Of a stretch of 6,113 nt of DNA, positions 1 to 6,113 are shown piece by piece. The stretch spans positions 1-6,113 of IMG/VR virus record IMGVR_UViG_2541047961_000012. The stretch is one strand, 5' to 3'. Both the position numbers and the translations under genes were made by a program. The notes beneath the pieces were generated by a model. The model made no database searches. It was not told the DNA's origin and saw only the letters and a list, made by a program, of their open reading frames with translations. The DNA comes from a virus (Duplodnaviria > Heunggongvirae > Uroviricota > Caudoviricetes). The number at the start of each line of letters is the position of its first letter. Within the stretch, counting starts at the first letter, position 1.

Positions 1-252
1 CTGTTTTCTGGCGTCTCCTGCCAGTGTGATGGTTTTGTCCTGTTTTTCCTGTGCGTCCAGGCTTTTATTAATCAGGTTGCCCAGCGGCGTGGCGGAGAAC
101 GCCGCATCAGCCATTTCCTGGCGGCGCTCGTTCTCTACCCGGTAGGCATCCAGCCAGGAGGAAAGCGCGGATTCAGGAGCGGGGATCCCCGTTCCTTCAC
201 GCCCCACTGCGTGGCGCGGTTGTTGCCAGTCCCTGATGTACTCTGCCGTCAT
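1..252 (-). CDS. hypothetical protein, N-terminal 84 codons only (gene runs off the left edge)
   Basis: Hand translation of the minus strand: ATG at 252..250, open to position 1 with no stop (MTAEYIRDWQQPRHAVGREGTGIP...). It starts 6 nt after the TAA (261..259) of the upstream gene, with only a weak SD. Absent from the ORF track because it is truncated. No family recognised. Confidence 0.45.
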   Translation of the reverse strand, partial: MTAEYIRDWQQPRHAVGREGTGIPAPESALSSWLDAYRVENERRQEMADAAFSATPLGNLINKSLDAQEKQDKTITLAGDARKQ

Positions 253-258
253 AGTGAT

Positions 259-624
259 TTACTTCGTCATGCCATTCAGGGTGTCGCGGCAGACTGTAGC
301 CAGCCGCTGAATTTCCAGCACGGTGTCTTCTGTGTCGGCATGGCGATGTGTGATGCGGATGCTGTCGGCAATCACATCGACGATTGCAGAGGATGGGCGC
401 TGGTAAATGCCAATAACGGACGGGGTGCCGCCTTCAATGCGGTAAAGCCTGTAATTTCCCTCGTGGCTGTCAATCATGTAGCGGCCATCAATAACAATCT
501 TTCCGTCAGCGAGCTGCGGTACAGGCAGGGATTTCAGGTACATGTCATAACGGTCACGCACGCGAACGGCAAGATCACGCTCTGTGTTGAGCAGGTATTC
601 AAGAAAGTCGTTGGCGAGAATCAT
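259..624 (-). CDS. hypothetical protein (121 aa)
   Basis: ORF in track. SD AAGAGGA sits 9 nt upstream of the ATG at 624..622. Composition is protein-like, unlike the overlapping plus-strand frame, which is Cys/Arg-rich. No family recognised. Confidence 0.6.
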   Translation of the reverse strand: MILANDFLEYLLNTERDLAVRVRDRYDMYLKSLPVPQLADGKIVIDGRYMIDSHEGNYRLYRIEGGTPSVIGIYQRPSSAIVDVIADSIRITHRHADTEDTVLEIQRLATVCRDTLNGMTK

Positions 625-696
625 TGCGGCAATCCTCTTGTTACAGATGTGCGAAGGCCTCCCGCCGCAAGGTGCAGGAAAGGCCCGGAACAGGAA

Positions 697-927
697 TTAA
701 TGGAGTTTGTTTTGCTGCTGGATGAGATCCTGAAGAGACAGGAGGTCTTCCGCCAGATAGCTGAATACAGCGGCGCAGTAGTCGGCTGAAATAGTGTTGT
801 TGAGTCTGTGCAATGTGTTGGATTGCATGATAAAGGCGATGTGTGCAGCGCGGGTGAGTCTGCGATCGATTTCAGTCTGGATGTGACGACGCTCCGCGAT
901 AGTGCGGTGCTGTTTGCGGTTTGCCAT
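697..927 (-). CDS. hypothetical small basic protein (76 aa)
   Basis: ORF in track. SD AAGAGG sits 8 nt upstream of the ATG at 927..925. Arg-rich N-terminus (MANRKQHRTIAERRHIQ) could be nucleic-acid binding. No family recognised. Confidence 0.5.
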   Translation of the reverse strand: MANRKQHRTIAERRHIQTEIDRRLTRAAHIAFIMQSNTLHRLNNTISADYCAAVFSYLAEDLLSLQDLIQQQNKLH

Positions 928-1020
928 GGTGTGGCCTCTTTGTTGGTAAGTTTTGAATACTCACCATCCAGAGCTGCGAAACTGTGGGTGGCGAGACGTA
1001 CGAGGTTCGCAGTACCGGTC

Positions 1021-1056
1021 AACAAAGAAAACCCGGCCCGACCGAAGTCGGCCCCG
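1021..1056 (-). terminator. candidate intrinsic terminator (minus strand)
   Basis: Minus strand reads GGGGCCGAC-TTCG-GTCGGGCC followed by GGGTTTTCTTTGTT: a GC-rich stem with one mismatch, a UUCG tetraloop and a T-rich tail. Confidence 0.35.
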
Positions 1057-1106
1057 TACGCCCCACCATAATTCTGATGCGAAAAAATGTGCGGCAATGC
1101 GGTACG

Positions 1107-1234
1107 CACAAAAAAACCGCTGGCGCGGTTGTGCGCTTTGTTGATCAGCAGGCTGCGAAACCCGGCACCCGTTTTATGAGATGCAACGGAAATGTAACCT
1201 GACTGATTGCGGCATGGCAAGCGGTTTTTTTGTG
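1107..1234. repeat. 15-bp perfect inverted repeat pair flanking 98 bp (cacaaaaaaaccgct at 1107..1121; agcggtttttttgtg at 1220..1234)
   Basis: Exact reverse complements, checked base by base. Each arm carries an A7 or T7 tract. The left arm also forms a local hairpin (cgcacaa / ccgc-tggc-gcgg / ttgtgcg) that reads as stem plus T7 on the minus strand. Confidence 0.6.
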
Positions 1235-1247
1235 AGAACGGCATACT

Positions 1248-1292
1248 AAAAAAATCCTGATACTGCTCCGGCCAGCGATTTTCACTGGCCGG
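1248..1292 (-). terminator. candidate terminator of the SPFH operon
   Basis: Perfect 8-bp GC-rich stem (ccggccag 1268..1275 / ctggccgg 1285..1292) with a 9-nt loop, starting 6 nt after the TAA (1301..1299) of the SPFH gene. On the minus strand a T7 tract (1254..1248) follows, but 13 nt beyond the stem, so geometry is non-canonical. Confidence 0.4.
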
Positions 1293-1298
1293 GTTTAA

Positions 1299-2129
1299 TT
1301 ACTTCACCGGAACAAACGGAACAGCGGTGTTGCTGGTCATGTATTGCGGCAGCGTGCCGTTCCATTTGTTGATTGCTTCCAGCTCCATAACGCCGGGATT
1401 CTGGCGCAGAGCTTCACCGCGTAAACGAATGGCGTCGGCTTCAGCCTGGGCTTTTGTGCGAATGGCATCAGCCTGTCCGGCAGCTTCTGCGCGCAACATG
1501 TTGGCTTCTGCTTCGCGTTGCTTGACTTCCTGTTCGCGTTGCAGGGTTTTCTGGTTTGCCGTGACTTTGGCATTAATGCTGTCGATAACGGTTGACGGGT
1601 ACTCCGGCTTACCCACATATGAGAGGCTCATTACCTGAATACCGATGGGTGTCATTTCCTCCTGAATGTCTTTAAGAGCTGCATCCAGTAGTTCAGATTT
1701 CCCGCCGTCGATAAATTTGTCGGTGGTCATTTTGCTGGCCAGTCGGTTGAGTGCATCGGCGATCTTCTGGCGCAGGTCAGTGTCGGTAATGTCATCCACG
1801 CCTTTGCGGTAGGTCTGAAACACTGTAGTAACTTTGGATGGATCAACCTTGTAGGCCACACCGATGTGATAGCCGATGGTTGTGCCGTCACTCATCTGGA
1901 AGCTGAACGGCTCATCGTAGGTCTTCATTTGTTTGAAGGTCGGGAAGATGTAAACCTCGGTATTCCAGCCAGTCCAGTAGCGGCCAACGCCAACCACTTC
2001 GCCGACGCCTTTGTCGTCGCCCAGTTTATTTACCTTGATGCCCACATTACCTGGCTCAACGCGATCGCAACCAACCAGCAGGATGGCGGCAAAAAGCGGG
2101 ATAATCTGAAAGAGTTTGAGTTTCTTCAT
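1299..2129 (-). CDS. SPFH/Band-7 (stomatin/prohibitin/HflKC-like) domain lipoprotein, 276 aa
   Basis: ORF in track. SD GAGGAAA upstream. N-terminal lipoprotein signal MKKLKLFQIIPLFAAILLVGC with lipobox LVGC, and Asp at +2 (CD...). C-terminal Ala/Glu-rich helical region with AEADAIR-type repeats typical of SPFH proteins. The start ATG (2129..2127) overlaps the upstream stop as ATGA. Family call is from motifs only, no HMM run. Confidence 0.8.
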   Translation of the reverse strand: MKKLKLFQIIPLFAAILLVGCDRVEPGNVGIKVNKLGDDKGVGEVVGVGRYWTGWNTEVYIFPTFKQMKTYDEPFSFQMSDGTTIGYHIGVAYKVDPSKVTTVFQTYRKGVDDITDTDLRQKIADALNRLASKMTTDKFIDGGKSELLDAALKDIQEEMTPIGIQVMSLSYVGKPEYPSTVIDSINAKVTANQKTLQREQEVKQREAEANMLRAEAAGQADAIRTKAQAEADAIRLRGEALRQNPGVMELEAINKWNGTLPQYMTSNTAVPFVPVK

Positions 2130-2329
2130 TGTTTGATTTCCTCAATGTATTTACTGAAAAAGCGAACAACGCCTGCCGGGTACAGCAGGGCAATGAAAAT
2201 GCCCAGCAATACCAGGAAGGAACTGTCAGATGAAATCATTCGGGGGAGTAGTCCTGCATACAGGATGAGAGAAATGAGGACGCATACCAGCGCCCACATG
2301 TATGCGCGAAACCATGTCTTGTTGTTCAT
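2126..2329 (-). CDS. small two-helix membrane protein (67 aa)
   Basis: Start chosen at ATG 2329..2327 (MNNKTWFRAYMWALVCVLISLILYAGLLPRMISSDSSFLVLLGIFIALLYPAGVVRFFSKYIEEIKQ). SD AAGGG sits 7 nt upstream and overlaps the TAA of the preceding gene. Two hydrophobic segments with basic termini. The stop overlaps the SPFH start as ATGA. Confidence 0.65.
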   Translation of the reverse strand: MNNKTWFRAYMWALVCVLISLILYAGLLPRMISSDSSFLVLLGIFIALLYPAGVVRFFSKYIEEIKQ

Positions 2330-2339
2330 GTTGCGGCCC

Positions 2340-2639
2340 TTACTGGTTAAGGAAAAAATCGAAAACCTTGTCAATGCGTTGCAGCAGCTCTTGCTGTATT
2401 GCTTCCGGCGTTTCCGGTTCTCCTGGCGCCTCCAACGTCGCGCAGAAATCCTTGATTTCATGATGGAGTGTCAGGCGAATGGCAGGAGCTGTGGTTCTGG
2501 CGTGCTCCAGTTCATCCAGTAGCGCCAGCACGGCAGACGGCGAGAGCATTGCGCGAAACGCCAGTAATTTTTGATGCGTTGCCATTCGTTGCAGGTCAGT
2601 CGCCAGTTCGCGTAATTCCTGGTGGTTGATGGCGCTCAT
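2340..2639 (-). CDS. hypothetical acidic helical protein (99 aa)
   Basis: ORF in track. SD AAGGAAG sits 9 nt upstream. The start overlaps the upstream stop as ATGA (2639..2636). No family recognised. Confidence 0.6.
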   Translation of the reverse strand: MSAINHQELRELATDLQRMATHQKLLAFRAMLSPSAVLALLDELEHARTTAPAIRLTLHHEIKDFCATLEAPGEPETPEAIQQELLQRIDKVFDFFLNQ

Positions 2640-2881
2640 GCTCTGGCTTCCTTCAGTAGCTGGTTAAACATGTTGGTAAGTGGATTGCCGCCCCCGAACG
2701 GCATCGGGTTTATCTGGTAAGAAAAGCGACCGCCTGTTTTGCGCTCTTTTCTTATGACTGAACCGCTGCGCCAGAGTCGGCGTAACTCCGCATTAATGGC
2801 TGTGGTTGGGGTATTCAGTGCTGCGGCGATTTCTCCACCGCTACACCCCGGATTGGCGGCGATATAGTCCAGAATGGTCAT
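2636..2881 (-). CDS. small winged-helix DNA-binding protein, FaeA/PapI-like (81 aa)
   Basis: ORF in track. SD AGGAG sits 9 nt upstream. N-terminal ILDYIAANPGCSGGEIAAAL... resembles the FaeA/PapI-type small wHTH regulators as I recall them. The start overlaps the upstream stop as ATGA (2881..2878). Not verified by search. Confidence 0.55.
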   Translation of the reverse strand: MTILDYIAANPGCSGGEIAAALNTPTTAINAELRRLWRSGSVIRKERKTGGRFSYQINPMPFGGGNPLTNMFNQLLKEARA

Positions 2882-3081
2882 CTGCGTGACTCCTGTACCT
2901 GTCGGATAAGGTTCACCCGCACCACGTTGGTGGCGCAGAAGTAAGTGCCGTCAGTGAGATAGATGTGATGTGCATCCTGTTCTGAACGGTGTTTGTCGAT
3001 TGTGGTAATCAGGCGTTCGTCGACCTCGTATTCACGTCCTCTGGAAGTGAAACGAACGACAGGAAAATGCTTAATTGCCAT
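2878..3081 (-). CDS. hypothetical protein (67 aa), first gene of the SPFH operon
   Basis: ORF in track. Strong SD AAGGAGG sits 5 nt upstream of the ATG at 3081..3079. Preceded by an 86-bp non-coding gap. No family recognised. Confidence 0.55.
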   Translation of the reverse strand: MAIKHFPVVRFTSRGREYEVDERLITTIDKHRSEQDAHHIYLTDGTYFCATNVVRVNLIRQVQESRR

Positions 3082-3167
3082 TGCGCCTCCTTGGCGTGTG
3101 CGAATACCTCCGCGAATGCGGATTGTTTTTACATTTTCTTATTTAACCTGTGGTTTTATTTGCTCTG

Positions 3168-3281
3168 TTATTCGCCAGTGAAAAAGCGTTCAATCTTTTT
3201 TACTGAATGAATAATTCGCATAATCCCAATGGCGCAGACCACCGAAATAATCAGAACAAGCCATGAGATAAATATACTCAT
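3168..3281 (-). CDS. 37-aa hydrophobic micro-protein (MSIFISWLVLIISVVCAIGIMRIIHSVKKIERFFTGE), predicted single-pass membrane peptide
   Basis: Found by hand translation, too short for the ORF track. ATG 3281..3279 overlaps the TGA (3280..3278) of the upstream 80-aa gene as ATGA. A 20-residue hydrophobic helix is followed by a basic tail. Stop TAA at 3170..3168. Only a weak GGGA SD-like element. Confidence 0.4.
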   Translation of the reverse strand: MSIFISWLVLIISVVCAIGIMRIIHSVKKIERFFTGE

Positions 3282-3520
3282 GCGATATTTCCCAGCTTAT
3301 ACGGTTCAATATGTTCCCCGCATTCTGCGGCACAGATCAACTCGGAAAGTTCGTTAAGTGCATCCAGATCATCAGCGTAAAAAGCCACGTCATACAGACT
3401 CCGGATTGCCCTGGTCAATGAGTCACGGGCTGCACGTTCAGCATGAGCGCCTGATGCACTTAAGCGAAAATAAAAACGCTCAAGTGCTTTGTTAATGAGA
3501 GTTTTATATTCTTTGCCCAT
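3278..3520 (-). CDS. hypothetical protein (80 aa)
   Basis: ORF in track. SD AAGGG sits 7 nt upstream of the ATG at 3520..3518, 11 nt after the upstream stop. No family recognised. Confidence 0.55.
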   Translation of the reverse strand: MGKEYKTLINKALERFYFRLSASGAHAERAARDSLTRAIRSLYDVAFYADDLDALNELSELICAAECGEHIEPYKLGNIA

Positions 3521-3531
3521 CGCAACGCCCT

Positions 3532-3819
3532 TTAATCTGCTTTCTGAATTTCAGTTTCTGAATCCATACAAATAATTTCGATATAGGGTTCATCGCCATT
3601 AGCCGGGCGTGCCTTTTCAGCTTCACTAATGATTTCTCGTACGGTCTGGTACGGAAGTTCCACAAGCAGTCGCGTGCCGTTCAGATAAACGTAAGTGGCT
3701 TCGTTGGCTCCGTTTTTACCCGCCGGAGCCACTCCATCAATAGCGGATGCGCGTAATAACAGTTCACCGCGAAAATCAATAAAACGGATAAATACACCTT
3801 GTGCATGCTCTTTGGTCAT
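3532..3819 (-). CDS. hypothetical protein (95 aa)
   Basis: Track ORF 3532..3879 trimmed to the internal ATG at 3819..3817 (MTKEHAQGVFIRF...). That start has SD AGGTG 5 nt upstream and lies 10 nt after the upstream stop. The longer start at 3879 has no SD and would overlap the upstream gene by 50 nt. Confidence 0.55.
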   Translation of the reverse strand: MTKEHAQGVFIRFIDFRGELLLRASAIDGVAPAGKNGANEATYVYLNGTRLLVELPYQTVREIISEAEKARPANGDEPYIEIICMDSETEIQKAD

Positions 3820-3829
3820 AACGCACCTG

Positions 3830-4180
3830 TTATAAATCAGCCTGTTTAATAAAACTTTGCCCGCGAAGCAGACGATCAACCGTGCGAAGTGCTTCGTATA
3901 ATGTGAAATCCTGTCCGAACTGATTGTCGCCGCAGCTCAATGAAAAAATGCGGTTTCCGGTAAACGGATTGCGTGGGCATTTGTGGACCACGATCCCGGC
4001 TTTCTCAATCAGCCAGGTATGCTCGCCGATTTGTTTTACTGGGTAGCCATCCGGCGTTGCGTGTGTTTCGCTCAGGCTGTAGCGAGAGCTGCTACGTGAT
4101 GCGCTGGTAGCGAAACGGTTAGCATGGCGTTCCGCACCGTTGCGGAAGCGCTGCTGTGAAGAATTGCGCCGTTCCTTCAT
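3830..4180 (-). CDS. hypothetical protein (116 aa) with a basic Ser/Arg-rich N-terminal region
   Basis: ORF in track. SD GGAG sits about 9 nt upstream of the ATG at 4180..4178. First gene after cox. No family recognised. Confidence 0.55.
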   Translation of the reverse strand: MKERRNSSQQRFRNGAERHANRFATSASRSSSRYSLSETHATPDGYPVKQIGEHTWLIEKAGIVVHKCPRNPFTGNRIFSLSCGDNQFGQDFTLYEALRTVDRLLRGQSFIKQADL

Positions 4181-4217
4181 ATCAAAATACTCCGCCTAAA
4201 ATGAGTTATGGTTTGAG

Positions 4218-4643
4218 TTATGCTGCTTTACCGCTGATGTTTCTGTTTCGTCTGCCACTTGTTGGCTTAAACAAAAACAGACGGTTTTCCCAGTCGTGCC
4301 ATTCCTGAGGTGCGTTTTCGATGAGGCGATCGCATGCTTCATCCCACGCTTTTCTGTTGATGTAGAGTTCAGCGTTTCCGCCTGGTTTAAGAGGGTCCGC
4401 CATATACACCGCAGGTAGCTTTCCTGCTTTGGCCATGCTTACGATGGCGTCAACGGTCTTTCCGATATACATCGCAAATCCTTCTTTTGACAGGAGATGC
4501 GAGGGATTTTCTGAAAGTCGAATTTCTTCACGTTCACGTGCTTTGCGTCCTGTTTTTTGATACTCCCCCTCTGGCATTTCTGACAGGCGATCGCATCGTG
4601 TTCCGCAAAGTGACTCAGGCGCGTTTTGAGTGCTTTCTTGCAT
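4218..4643 (-). CDS. cox: Cox/Apl-like excisionase-regulator homolog with a roughly 50-aa N-terminal extension (141 aa)
   Basis: Divergent from the C-type repressor. Core FAMYIGKTVDAIVSMAKAGKLPAVYMADP resembles the P2 Cox HTH region as I recall it. Strong SD GGAGG sits 8 nt upstream of the ATG at 4643..4641; the internal Met23 has no SD. Confidence 0.7.
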   Translation of the reverse strand: MQESTQNAPESLCGTRCDRLSEMPEGEYQKTGRKAREREEIRLSENPSHLLSKEGFAMYIGKTVDAIVSMAKAGKLPAVYMADPLKPGGNAELYINRKAWDEACDRLIENAPQEWHDWENRLFLFKPTSGRRNRNISGKAA

Positions 4644-4751
4644 CTGATATCCTCCGCTATTGGTGCTTTCTTCTAACTAGCACCATTTAGAACTAGTTAG
4701 CGCAATTCGTTGTGTGTTAATTGATGTATAAACTAAGTGAGTTAACTTACT
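4644..4751. promoter_or_regulatory. C/cox divergent switch region with operator-like dyads
   Basis: 108-bp AT-rich gap between divergent start codons. Inverted repeat CTAACTAG (4673..4680) / CTAGTTAG (4693..4700) with a 12-bp spacer. AACTAG direct repeats at 4675 and 4691. Dyad TGGTGC (4661..4666) / GCACCA (4680..4685). TATAAA at 4727..4732 preceded by TG. Exact promoter hexamers could not be assigned. Confidence 0.55.
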
Positions 4752-5051
4752 ATGTCAACTACCGTAGCTATGAAAATTCGCATCATGCGGAAGTCAGAAA
4801 TGCTTACACAAGAAAAAATGGCAGAGATTACTGGGCTTACTCTTGCTGCATTAAGGCAATATGAGCAAGGACGAAATGAACCCAACCTTGAGTCAACAAA
4901 AAAGCTTCTGAAAGCCCCCATGTTCCGTAAGTACCGCGACTGGTTTTTGTTTGATGAAGTTGAACCCAAGGCCGGGCAGGTTGTACCGGCTCTCGCACAC
5001 ATTGGGCAAGGCGAAGCGGAATCATCCCGCTCCGGCAAGAAGACTGGTTAA
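4752..5051 (+). CDS. C: P2 C-type immunity repressor (99 aa)
   Basis: ORF in track. Same length as P2 C, and the sequence (MSTTVAMKIRIMRKSEML...VPALAHIGQ...SGKKTG) closely resembles P2 C as I recall it, with an HTH near the N-terminus. Sits directly upstream of int on the same strand, as in P2. Confidence 0.85.
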   Translation: MSTTVAMKIRIMRKSEMLTQEKMAEITGLTLAALRQYEQGRNEPNLESTKKLLKAPMFRKYRDWFLFDEVEPKAGQVVPALAHIGQGEAESSRSGKKTG

Positions 5052-5117
5052 CGGTTCACCAGGCATTTATTTCCCAGAGCTGTGATCAAGATGATGTTTT
5101 CATTGGAGGGCTTCCTT

Positions 5118-6113
5118 ATGTCGATTAAGAAGCTCGCTAATGGCAAATTCTGTGTGGACGTGCGGCCAGCTGGATCAGAAGGAAAAAGATTCAGGCGGCG
5201 ATTTGATACTCGTGGTGAGGCTGTTTTGTATGAGCGTCATGTATTGCAGCATTACCACGACAAAGACTGGGTTGATAAGCCAACAGAACGGCGCTCGCTG
5301 AGGGAGTTGCTGGATTGTTGGTGGCTATACCACGGGAAAAATCATCCTTACGGTGCGATGGAGCGAGTGCGTATTTCTGCGGTCATTAGTGATCTTGAAA
5401 GTATTAATGTTACACGCAGCGACCAACTTACTCGTAAGAACATAATTAATTATCGGTTATTGTTGCTTAACCGCGGAATAAAACAATCCACGGTTAATCG
5501 TTATTGCGCAATGATGAGTGGTTTCTTCACAAAACTAATTGACGCAGAGGAATATTCTGGGGCTAATCCGTTTCATGATGTGAAAAAACTTAATATCAAA
5601 CAGCCTGAAATGGCTTATTTGTATCATGAGGATATTCCACGATTACTGGAGTTGTTATCTGGTGATGAATTAAAAGCTGTCTTGTTGTGTCTGGCAACAG
5701 GTGGAAGATGGAGTGAGGTTGCAAATATCAAGGGGGAGCATGTTATTAGCGGCAAAGTCATTTTTATGGAAACCAAAAATGGGAAGCGTCGCGTTATACC
5801 TATATCGTCAGAACTGGAGTGCATGATTAAAACAAAGGCCACTGGTCGTTTAATTTATCCAAGTTATGCCGCTGTCAGAGCTGCTATCAGAAAGGTGAGG
5901 CCCGATCTTCCTGAAGGGCAGTCGATACATGTTTTACGGCATACCTTTGCCACTCACTTCATGATTAATGGTGGGAATATCATCACTTTGCAGAGAATAC
6001 TTGGGCATAGCACTATTCAGCAGACGATGACTTATGCCCATTTTGCACCGGATTATCTGCAGGATGCTGTGCGCTTTAATCCTGTGGCTGAGTTGTCCAG
6101 ATATTGCCCATAA
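5118..6113 (+). CDS. int: tyrosine site-specific integrase, P2 Int-like (331 aa)
   Basis: Start moved from the track's 5082 to the ATG at 5118, which has SD GGAGGG 7 nt upstream and gives MSIKKLANGKFCVDVRP..., like the P2 Int N-terminus. C-terminal catalytic signature HVLRHTFATHF...GHSTIQQTMTYAH (H-x-x-R box and Tyr nucleophile). The stop TAA is the last 3 nt of the window. Confidence 0.9.
   Translation: MSIKKLANGKFCVDVRPAGSEGKRFRRRFDTRGEAVLYERHVLQHYHDKDWVDKPTERRSLRELLDCWWLYHGKNHPYGAMERVRISAVISDLESINVTRSDQLTRKNIINYRLLLLNRGIKQSTVNRYCAMMSGFFTKLIDAEEYSGANPFHDVKKLNIKQPEMAYLYHEDIPRLLELLSGDELKAVLLCLATGGRWSEVANIKGEHVISGKVIFMETKNGKRRVIPISSELECMIKTKATGRLIYPSYAAVRAAIRKVRPDLPEGQSIHVLRHTFATHFMINGGNIITLQRILGHSTIQQTMTYAHFAPDYLQDAVRFNPVAELSRYCP

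Follow-up and report, generated by a model that had tools for sequence, protein, structure and literature searches.

A probable isrK–C4 RNA immunity cassette in the early operon of a P2-family prophage, and its lineage-specific inverted repeat

The window analyzed here is a stretch of 6,113 nucleotides from a tailed-phage record (Caudoviricetes; IMG/VR IMGVR_UViG_2541047961_000012, positions 1 to 6,113), and our subject is the gap at 928–1298, between the start codon of a minus-strand open reading frame (ORF) of 76 aa (927) and the stop of an SPFH gene (1299). We conclude that this gap is probably the control region of an RNA-based immunity or anti-immunity cassette, encoded on the minus strand within the early operon of a prophage that belongs to the P2 family (P88-like, Xuanwuvirus). 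The cassette is most likely of the type known as seqA–CI–seqC in P4, immI (a1b1–c4–a2b2) in P1 and P7, and IsrK–STnc1160 in Gifsy-1. By analogy with those systems, its two RNAs, IsrK and C4, would most likely serve to keep an anti-repressor gene and a replication gene off. The gap also holds a 15-bp perfect inverted repeat, the most conspicuous feature of a preliminary description made from the letters of the window; its complementarity is most likely an evolutionary by-product that stands outside the conserved machinery of the cassette.

The identity of the cassette comes from an Rfam scan of the whole window, which returned exactly two matches, isrK and C4, both on the minus strand, full length and above their gathering scores, and from the fact that the two stand in the tandem order known from other phages, with C4 beginning 36 nt downstream of isrK. 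The first is the equivalent of P4 seqA and of the c4-a1b1 motif, and the second of the P4 CI RNA and Salmonella STnc1160. In sequence and predicted structure the two candidate genes agree with families RF01394 and RF01695, and they show the complementarity to targets that defines the immI and P4 systems. Systems of this kind are familiar, and both genes would be labeled by any annotation that uses Rfam. The suggestion in the preliminary description that the region encodes a small structured RNA was thus borne out, with two genes in place of one. The elements of the cassette are as follows:

1220..1191, minus strand: PisrK, a sigma-70-like promoter (-35 TTGCCA at 1220..1215, 18-nt spacer, -10 TACATT at 1196..1191)
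1184..1110, minus strand: isrK small RNA (sRNA) gene (RF01394, 66.4 bits against a gathering score of 50, E 5e-13, model positions 1–77 of 77)
1184..1165, minus strand: IsrK hairpin 1
1164..1149, minus strand: IsrK hairpin 2, holding site a1 UUUCGCAG (1160..1153)
1144..1136, minus strand: site b1 UCAACAAAG in the single-stranded linker of IsrK
1130..1110, minus strand: intrinsic terminator of IsrK, from terminator scan and fold (stem 1130..1115 and U7 1116..1110)
1073..984, minus strand: C4 antisense RNA gene (RF01695, 77.8 bits against a gathering score of 45, E 1.6e-14, model positions 1–87 of 87)
1046..1043, minus strand: UUCG of the cUUCGg loop of C4 hairpin 1
1028..1019, minus strand: recognition loop b' UCUUUGUUGA of C4 hairpin 2
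1012..1006, minus strand: single-stranded a' CUGCGAA of C4
981..974, minus strand: target site a2 UUUCGCAG, complementary to C4 a'
945..937, minus strand: target site b2 CAACAAAGA, complementary to the C4 loop b'

Both RNAs fold as their families do. The minimum free energy (MFE) structure of 1184..1100 consists of two 5' hairpins, a linker and the terminator hairpin, as in the isrK model, and the MFE structure of C4 (-44.6 kcal/mol, z -3.5) is that of the family model, with a closing stem of 17 bp around the UUCG hairpin, a second hairpin whose loop has 14 nt, and 8 nt of single strand. PisrK was the only sigma-70-like site called in a promoter scan of 600–1500, and its predicted start, 1184, coincides with position 1 of the isrK model; among relatives the hexamers are conserved and the spacer is variable. 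By sequence prediction, then, isrK would be preceded directly by a promoter of its own and would end in a Rho-independent terminator. An Hfq-binding IsrK transcript of ~75 nt is known for Salmonella and may also be made from this locus. Two hairpins of the preliminary description find their place here. The bulged hairpin that it saw in the left arm of the repeat is real and is the minus-strand intrinsic terminator of IsrK; the UUCG hairpin at 1021..1056 is also real, but it is formed by the inner part of C4 (hairpin 2 together with hairpin 1, whose loop is cUUCGg) and not the terminator it was taken to resemble.

Between the IsrK terminator and C4 the promoter scan made no call, and the best candidate found there by eye matches only 8 of 12 hexamer positions. 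C4 carries a GCCACC motif at its 3' end. With Gifsy-1 and P4 as precedents, it presumably derives from transcripts that pass the IsrK terminator and are then processed, which in this RNA family involves RNase P at the 5' end. The counterpart of Gifsy-1 'orf45' starts here at an AUG within the 5' part of the C4 closing stem and runs for only 16 codons (1069..1019, minus strand). Since this frame stops at 1019, 90 nt ahead of the next gene, translational coupling of the orf45–anrP type is unlikely here.

The evidence for an antisense function comes from the targets. Site b2 overlaps the Shine–Dalgarno sequence AAGAGG (940..935) of the 76-aa ORF, 7 nt ahead of its ATG (927..925), and its position over the ribosome-binding site is kept in relatives. 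The complements are exact over 9–10 nt for b', b1 and b2 and over 7–8 nt for a', a1 and a2, and in the predicted fold of the unprocessed read-through RNA, b' pairs with b2 and a' with a2 in cis, burying the ribosome-binding site. In an alignment of ten relatives, each change in b' is mirrored in both targets. A set of 88 distinct loci from viral contigs and genomes holds 34 types of b' and 16 of a', combined in 43 ways, and in it the complement is much longer for cognate than for non-cognate sites in b1 (8.0 vs 4.0 nt), b2 (8.6 vs 5.0 nt), a1 (6.9 vs 3.3 nt) and a2 (7.0 vs 4.8 nt). Across these loci one b type is found paired with three or more a types. The reassortment of a' and b' suggests recombination between two specificity determinants that lie inside C4, within a stretch of about 20 nt.

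The genes that C4 would control lie immediately downstream, within a P2-family prophage:

927..697, minus strand: 76-aa epsilon-like ORF, homologue of P4 epsilon (phrog_3688)
624..259, minus strand: 121-aa ORF (phrog_3237) between the epsilon-like gene and gene A, its position conserved in relatives
252..1, minus strand: 5' end of the P2-type replication endonuclease gene gpA (RefSeq annotation of locus L001), running off the window

The 76-aa protein is 29% identical to P4 epsilon over 66 aa (BLASTP, E 1e-8), scores 24.2 bits against Pfam PF25738 'Derepression' (under the 27-bit cut-off) and has no match in NCBIfam; some of its homologues are called 'derepression protein' in RefSeq. We take its gene to be a candidate anti-repressor or derepression gene, predicted from its sequence to be gated directly by C4. 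The 121-aa ORF shows no similarity to P4 orf151, and gpA is the last gene of the gated unit. Locus L001, in Escherichia coli WS1933D, is 100% identical to the window over 928–1298 and lies in a P2-family prophage beside dmsA; among phages, P88 and other members of Xuanwuvirus match best. On the minus strand the early operon consists, in order, of Cox, small ORFs, SPFH, [isrK][C4], the 76-aa ORF, the 121-aa ORF and gpA, and the cassette is flanked by P2-family structural and replication genes, Cox and an integrase. Homologous DNA was found in 1,266 of 5,426 complete E. coli genomes (about a quarter). A scan of the genome collection with the 76-aa protein itself gave a single locus, in E. albertii, and a profile scan of viral contigs gave close relatives only; the isrK–C4 pair also occurs in P4, lambdoid phages, ST64B and a Hafnia phage.

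The gene that C4 gates depends on the type of element, as seen in the viral-contig loci L019–L184. It is an epsilon-like protein of 75–77 aa in P2-like phages, an Icd-like ORF of 48–64 aa in two A-tract promoter classes (P4-like or other islands) and, in lambdoid phages, a Rha-type anti-repressor of ~180–215 aa between cII-like and replication genes. The epsilon-like gene itself exists in at least two allelic forms, as seen when the window (697–927) is set beside L001 and L185–L264. The L001 protein is only about 70% identical to that of the window, and because the N-terminal ~20 residues are common to both alleles, the sequences place a recombination point just inside the 76-aa ORF. The alleles might track repressor specificity; the prophage's own repressor is a protein of 99 aa (4752–5051).

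From these elements we propose the following course of events. Transcription would start from PisrK (1220..1191) at ~1184, as the promoter scan and the start of the Rfam model indicate, and most transcripts would end at the intrinsic terminator (1130..1110), giving the ~75-nt IsrK sRNA. A minority would read through, and the C4 RNA (1073..984) would be cut from these, as it is in Gifsy-1, P4 and P1. In the leader of the following gene, b2 and a2 would then be bound by b' and a' of C4, b2 covering the Shine–Dalgarno sequence; for this step the complementarity is seen directly in the sequence and through covariation. Such pairing would block translation of the epsilon-like anti-repressor and, through polarity or termination of the kind seen in P1 icd/ant and the P4 alpha operon, also expression of the 121-aa ORF and gene A. 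As IsrK holds a second copy of both targets in a1 and b1, it could compete for C4 or, on the Gifsy-1 model, refold the read-through RNA, and would thus act as an antagonist or tuner of C4. Repression by C4 together with superinfection immunity or heteroimmunity is what would be expected of a cassette of this type.

Some points weigh against this account. The duplex energies of the short a and b sites, computed from the single sequence, are not individually significant in comparison with shuffled targets, for which reason the antisense case rests on covariation. The epsilon assignment depends on one pairwise E value of 1e-8 and a sub-threshold Pfam score. Finally, promoter use, read-through, C4 processing and the direction of the IsrK effect are all carried over from other phages.

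The inverted repeat consists of two arms, whose coordinates and 98-bp spacing we confirmed as previously described:

1107–1121: left arm CACAAAAAAACCGCT (minus-strand reading AGCGGUUUUUUUGUG)
1220–1234: right arm AGCGGTTTTTTTGTG (minus-strand reading CACAAAAAAACCGCU)

The arms are perfect reverse complements over 15 bp, and pairing extends to 28 nt at 86% (1097–1124 / 1217–1244). A perfect inverted repeat of 15 is the longest in the data at gaps of up to 200 bp, whereas the longest found was 13 in 500 dinucleotide-preserving shuffles of 928–1298 and 14 in 60 shuffles of the whole window; with up to three mismatches allowed, the 15-mer occurs 3 times against 0.28 expected. As it exceeds every shuffle maximum and the mismatch expectation, the repeat is non-random, though less extreme than the chance of roughly 0.001 first put on it. 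In minus-strand reading, the left arm runs from the last loop base of the IsrK terminator (A1121) through the 3' strand of its stem and the U-tract to the third nucleotide past it. An A7 tract is part of the right arm, which adjoins the -35 hexamer of PisrK; as it lies upstream of this promoter, it should be absent from transcripts that start there. Its outer end also marks a module boundary, as had been surmised: among the E. coli and phage matches listed, most stop at query position 307, which is window position 1234, and beyond it the related prophages carry differing cargo genes.

In our judgment the complementarity of the arms is most likely a by-product of evolution. In sequence the right arm is similar to the 5' strand of the terminator, (G)CGCAC-An-CCGC, as if that strand had been copied a second time, and the match was possibly perfected by duplication or template switching. 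Upstream of isrK, five lambdoid loci (L012–L016) and P4 have no complement of their own terminator, and the A-tract is absent as well; in lambdoid, ST64B, Hafnia, P4-like and P4 loci taken together, such a complement is missing or limited to A/U tracts, and the repeat is therefore not part of the conserved design of the family. Duplexes of the arm with its own terminator reach -24.7 to -31.8 kcal/mol in the P2-like class, compared with -8 to -16 kcal/mol in the two other A-tract promoter classes and -3 to -15 kcal/mol elsewhere. Class C promoters share an A-tract-CC(GC/AG)-TTG and retain AAAAAAACCGC-TTG though the stem of their terminator differs (CACGCG/CGCGTG). In variants where A5 faces T7 or A7 faces T5 the change is uncompensated, and for two of the three arm types in the diverged A2 subgroup (A2b and A2c) pairing with their own 3' strand is no better than pairing with the strands of A1.

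The A7 tract has a possible explanation of its own. It lies at -46 to -40 relative to the inferred IsrK start, which we take to be the position of the proximal subsite of an UP element (consensus AAAAAARNR, -46 to -38). Such elements, A/T tracts at about -40 to -60, stimulate promoters by way of the C-terminal domain of the alpha subunit of RNA polymerase. Among isrK promoters, A-tracts at this position are found in three classes, whose hexamers are weaker, and are missing wherever the hexamers are TTGACT/TATATT or TTGAAA/TATAGT; one lambdoid class with weak hexamers (TTGATT/TACACT) has no A-tract, and P4 has a T-tract there.

Other observations speak against a mere by-product. Beyond the A7/T7 tracts, the remaining 8 matching bases are improbable by chance. 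The repeat survives in the A2 subgroup, five loci found by a scan with the divergent L063 protein, whose epsilon-like proteins are 38% identical to that of the window and 55–67% identical to one another. Here the terminator flank is UUUUUUU-ACGUG and the arm CACGUAC-AAAAA, and the pairing shows two adjacent double changes, AU to GC and CG to UA. One locus has both tracts shortened (A6/T6), and several single changes repair a mismatch at position 14. When 29 distinct arm pairs were aligned, 78% of the cells paired, and the covariation score was reached by none of 500 shuffles. On the other hand, the slide -2 control scores higher than the true register (0.075 vs 0.059) and the double changes trace to one lineage split, for which reasons we regard the covariation between the arms as weak, suggestive but not decisive. 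Alignment across homologous elements, which the preliminary description had proposed as a check, thus gave strong covariation between C4 and its targets but little between the arms, whose repeat is confined to the P2-like lineage.

The most serious alternative, though we hold it to be unlikely, is that the repeat works as an RNA switch sensing the promoter from which a transcript originates. Only transcripts from upstream (Pe-type, passing through the cargo gene) would hold the 5' arm, and the arm would capture the 3' strand and U-tract of the terminator. The outcome could be read-through into C4, the epsilon-like gene and gene A, a site for RNase III (24/28 bp) or a masked Hfq-binding 3' end of IsrK, and transcripts from PisrK, without the arm, would terminate normally. 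Folding agrees with this: a Pe-type transcript (1250..1097) prefers the long-range helix, at -58.0 kcal/mol compared with -47.4 kcal/mol when the terminator hairpin is forced, and when truncated at 1117 its MFE structure still contains CCGCU:AGCGG, with a GCGC/GCGC mini-hairpin holding the 5' strand of the terminator. In relatives without SPFH, the stop of the upstream gene lies 17–19 nt from the arm with no terminator between, so early transcripts must carry the arm. Lambdoid loci, which lack the repeat, belong to phages that generally possess protein antiterminators, and none is known in P2-type phages. P4 treats transcripts from its upstream late promoter differently from those of PLE, and it is reported to bypass seqA by translating across it. 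The double changes of A2, the A6/T6 variant and the score unmatched in 500 shuffles would also be expected of a functional helix.

What makes the switch doubtful is first its geometry. The arm pairs with the 3' half of the terminator stem and not with the 5' half, and at the moment of the termination decision the U-tract would be inside the polymerase, with the 5' strand far nearer than an arm 98 nt off; kinetic competition by the arm therefore looks unfavorable, and folding alone cannot predict its outcome. The covariation amounts to essentially one evolutionary event, with the slid control scoring higher. The A2b and A2c arms, the A5/T7 and A7/T5 variants and the same A7CCGC element beside the non-matching terminators of class C all fit the by-product better, and in the window the A7 has a local U7 partner at 1254..1248. 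If the switch were nevertheless real, lytic transcripts would bypass or re-process the immunity cassette and express the epsilon-like anti-repressor and gene A, and promoter-proximal transcripts would still yield IsrK and C4, making the repeat an RNA-only counterpart of the lambdoid N and Q proteins.

We consider it improbable that the repeat acts as DNA, whether through looping by a regulator bound at two inverted sites, as a cruciform or as a recombination signal at the cargo boundary. The arms do bracket the promoter and the sRNA gene, with centers 113 bp apart, homology among relatives with different cargo starts 0–6 nt outside the right arm, and the 15-mer occurs in the window at these two places only. 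However, no third copy was found and no candidate binding protein identified, one arm is already fully accounted for as a terminator, other elements with the same cassette do without the repeat, and the upstream edge of a promoter is where a module boundary would be expected anyway, with no need of a special signal.

The preliminary description had likened the whole repeat to an oversized bidirectional terminator closed by A7/U7, a reading to which we give very little credence. Folding of both strands did produce the long stem in silico, on the minus strand at -58.3 kcal/mol (z -4.7) and on the plus strand at -54.2 kcal/mol (z -2.7), and a scan of 600–1500 found 6 terminator-like sites against 1.2 expected. 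The geometry that defines a terminator is nevertheless not there: the A7/U7 tracts lie inside the long helix and the 'loop' is 98 nt. From the established mechanism, the A7:U7 pairing could not contribute, as the U-tract would still be in the RNA–DNA hybrid at termination. The left arm alone belongs to a complete conventional terminator, which is conserved in elements without the right arm. On the plus strand, neither the ORF list nor the promoter scan showed a gene or called promoter that would feed the region, and 1203–1230, ending in T7 (1224–1230), offers only a 4-bp stem that the terminator scan did not call.

Even less plausible is that the region codes for protein, as RefSeq and GenBank entries imply that place 'ash family protein', 'antirepressor' and 'transcriptional regulator' coding sequences (CDSs) on homologous DNA, and as a 207-aa ORF at 1244..621 might suggest. 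As noted in the preliminary description, the ORF list holds no credible frame within 928–1298, only short or overlapping ones. The 207-aa shadow ORF has no match in Pfam, it overlaps the conserved 76-aa gene in a different frame, its counterpart is flagged by RefSeq mostly as incomplete or pseudo, and indels of 2 nt and 1 nt between relatives fall inside it. No gene inside 928–1298 was supported when this ORF and four neighboring proteins were compared with Pfam, PHROGs, NCBIfam and PADLOC. The variation is that of RNA, with three-way complementary changes, and the P4 'cI' CDS is likewise a historical annotation over sequence now known as RNA. Pipelines draw such CDSs, among them also a 'cI gene product', across the isrK and C4 genes in L003, L005, L012, L014, L016, L017, L018 and the P4 record (L139, 1669–2085); they look over-extended or spurious. 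Most E. coli records have no annotation over the region.

Least probable of all, to the point of being negligible, is that the 98-bp segment is an invertible promoter switch: perfect inverted repeats do flank a promoter-containing segment, but the inverted query matched normal loci in two separate pieces only, a single orientation is common to all viral loci retrieved, and no invertase gene is annotated nearby. In a search of 5,426 complete E. coli genomes with the inverted segment, 824 genomes gave any match, and in these no place covered 80% or more of the query.

Upstream of the cassette, the remaining structure of the gap belongs to the cargo:

1268..1292, minus strand: stem-loop trailing the SPFH gene, with 11-bp arms (91%) and a 3-nt loop (-21.8 kcal/mol, z -6.1)

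This hairpin, reported earlier, is real, and is confined to relatives that bear SPFH. The T-run closest to it (1254..1248) is 13 nt away and the terminator scan makes no call there, so it is no canonical intrinsic terminator; it is part of the variable SPFH cargo, outside the RNA cassette. The A7 of the right arm can also pair locally with the U7 after this hairpin (1223–1231 with 1249–1257, 9 nt at 89%), so that within long transcripts of SPFH-bearing phages a nearby sequence would compete for the arm. The slot for this cargo (1299–2329, minus strand) is variable: here it contains the SPFH lipoprotein and, overlapping with it, a membrane protein of 67 aa, and in relatives a DNA-binding protein, an ead/Ea22-like ORF or DUF4406 with a Dam methylase; PADLOC found no defense system in the slot. 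One locus (L268, IMG/VR UViG_2825488710_000003) carries two complete isrK–C4 cassettes in tandem, at 277–468 and 956–1147, ~680 bp apart, with different a/b specificities and each with its own A5-CCGCT arm upstream of its promoter.

With this identification, an anonymous stretch between genes, carried by about a quarter of complete E. coli genomes, becomes a named regulatory module. Its practical value is correct annotation, as the module is usually unannotated or hidden under spurious 'ash family' or 'antirepressor' CDSs. It also implies that helper-type phages of the P2 family share a programmable RNA immunity cassette and an epsilon-like anti-repressor with their satellite P4. Dozens of recombining loop and target specificities are relevant to prophage induction, heteroimmunity and possibly cross-talk between helper and satellite. 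The known principle is unchanged, and the mechanistic question that the locus adds concerns any role of the lineage-specific repeat in long transcripts.

Our literature search gave no earlier account of this cassette for phages of the P88-like or Xuanwuvirus type; the comparison here is with better-known elements. The c4 and c4-a1b1 motifs have been described (PMC2864571), and P4, P1, P7 and N15 are known to share an 'IsrK–C4 immunity system' (PMC3632133). In Gifsy-1, IsrK is a homologue of seqA and STnc1160 is processed from the read-through transcript (Hershko-Shalev et al. 2016, PMC4825925); there the mRNA that reads through the IsrK terminator is translationally silent, and short IsrK activates it in trans (PMC4825925).

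A parallel in gene order is P4, which has the same two Rfam families in the same order (L139; isrK at 2193..2116, C4 at 2008..1921), copies of the CI/C4 target upstream and downstream, and a CI precursor that is a read-through or processed transcript. The order in its left operon, isrK(seqA)–C4(cI)–epsilon–orf151–orf106–alpha, is partly matched by isrK–C4–epsilon-like gene–ORF–replication gene in the window. P4 is however a satellite, whereas the element of the window is a complete helper-type phage of the P2 family; the replication gene is the alpha primase in P4 and a P2-type gpA endonuclease here, and orf151 is unrelated to the 121-aa ORF. P4 has neither A-tract arm nor inverted repeat (duplex -8.5 kcal/mol). 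The documented output in P4 is transcription termination, whereas b2 in the window lies on the Shine–Dalgarno sequence, as in P1.

The Gifsy-1 arrangement, IsrK–orf45/STnc1160–anrP, likewise has an isrK with its own promoter and a leaky terminator followed by an anti-repressor gene. Its read-through RNA is silenced by pairing between the IsrK region and downstream sequence, and the unprocessed RNA of the window also folds with its ribosome-binding site sequestered. Gifsy-1 is lambdoid and gates a different gene, and the five lambdoid loci L012–L016, Gifsy-1 not among them, have a near-consensus promoter and neither A-tract nor repeat; the output of Gifsy-1 reaches AntQ, whereas the window has no Q-like gene. 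With sigma-70 promoters that carry an UP element, the A7 of the window agrees in position.

In its logic the cassette agrees with immI of P1 and P7 (a1 b1–c4–a2 b2–icd–ant; RF01695, and RF03163 for c4-a1b1). In both, an antisense RNA with two recognition elements is flanked by copies of its targets, and the downstream copy overlies the ribosome-binding site of a small ORF, which is either a known or putative anti-repressor gene or the ORF ahead of one. P1 and P7 gate icd and ant and the window an epsilon-like gene, and the upstream target copy of the window, unlike theirs, is a separately terminated sRNA with its own terminator. The heteroimmunity of P1 and P7 reflects shifts of specificity by covariation of loop and target, as in the family of the window; there the diversity (34 × 16 types) is far above that of the P1/P7 pair, and the principle is the same.

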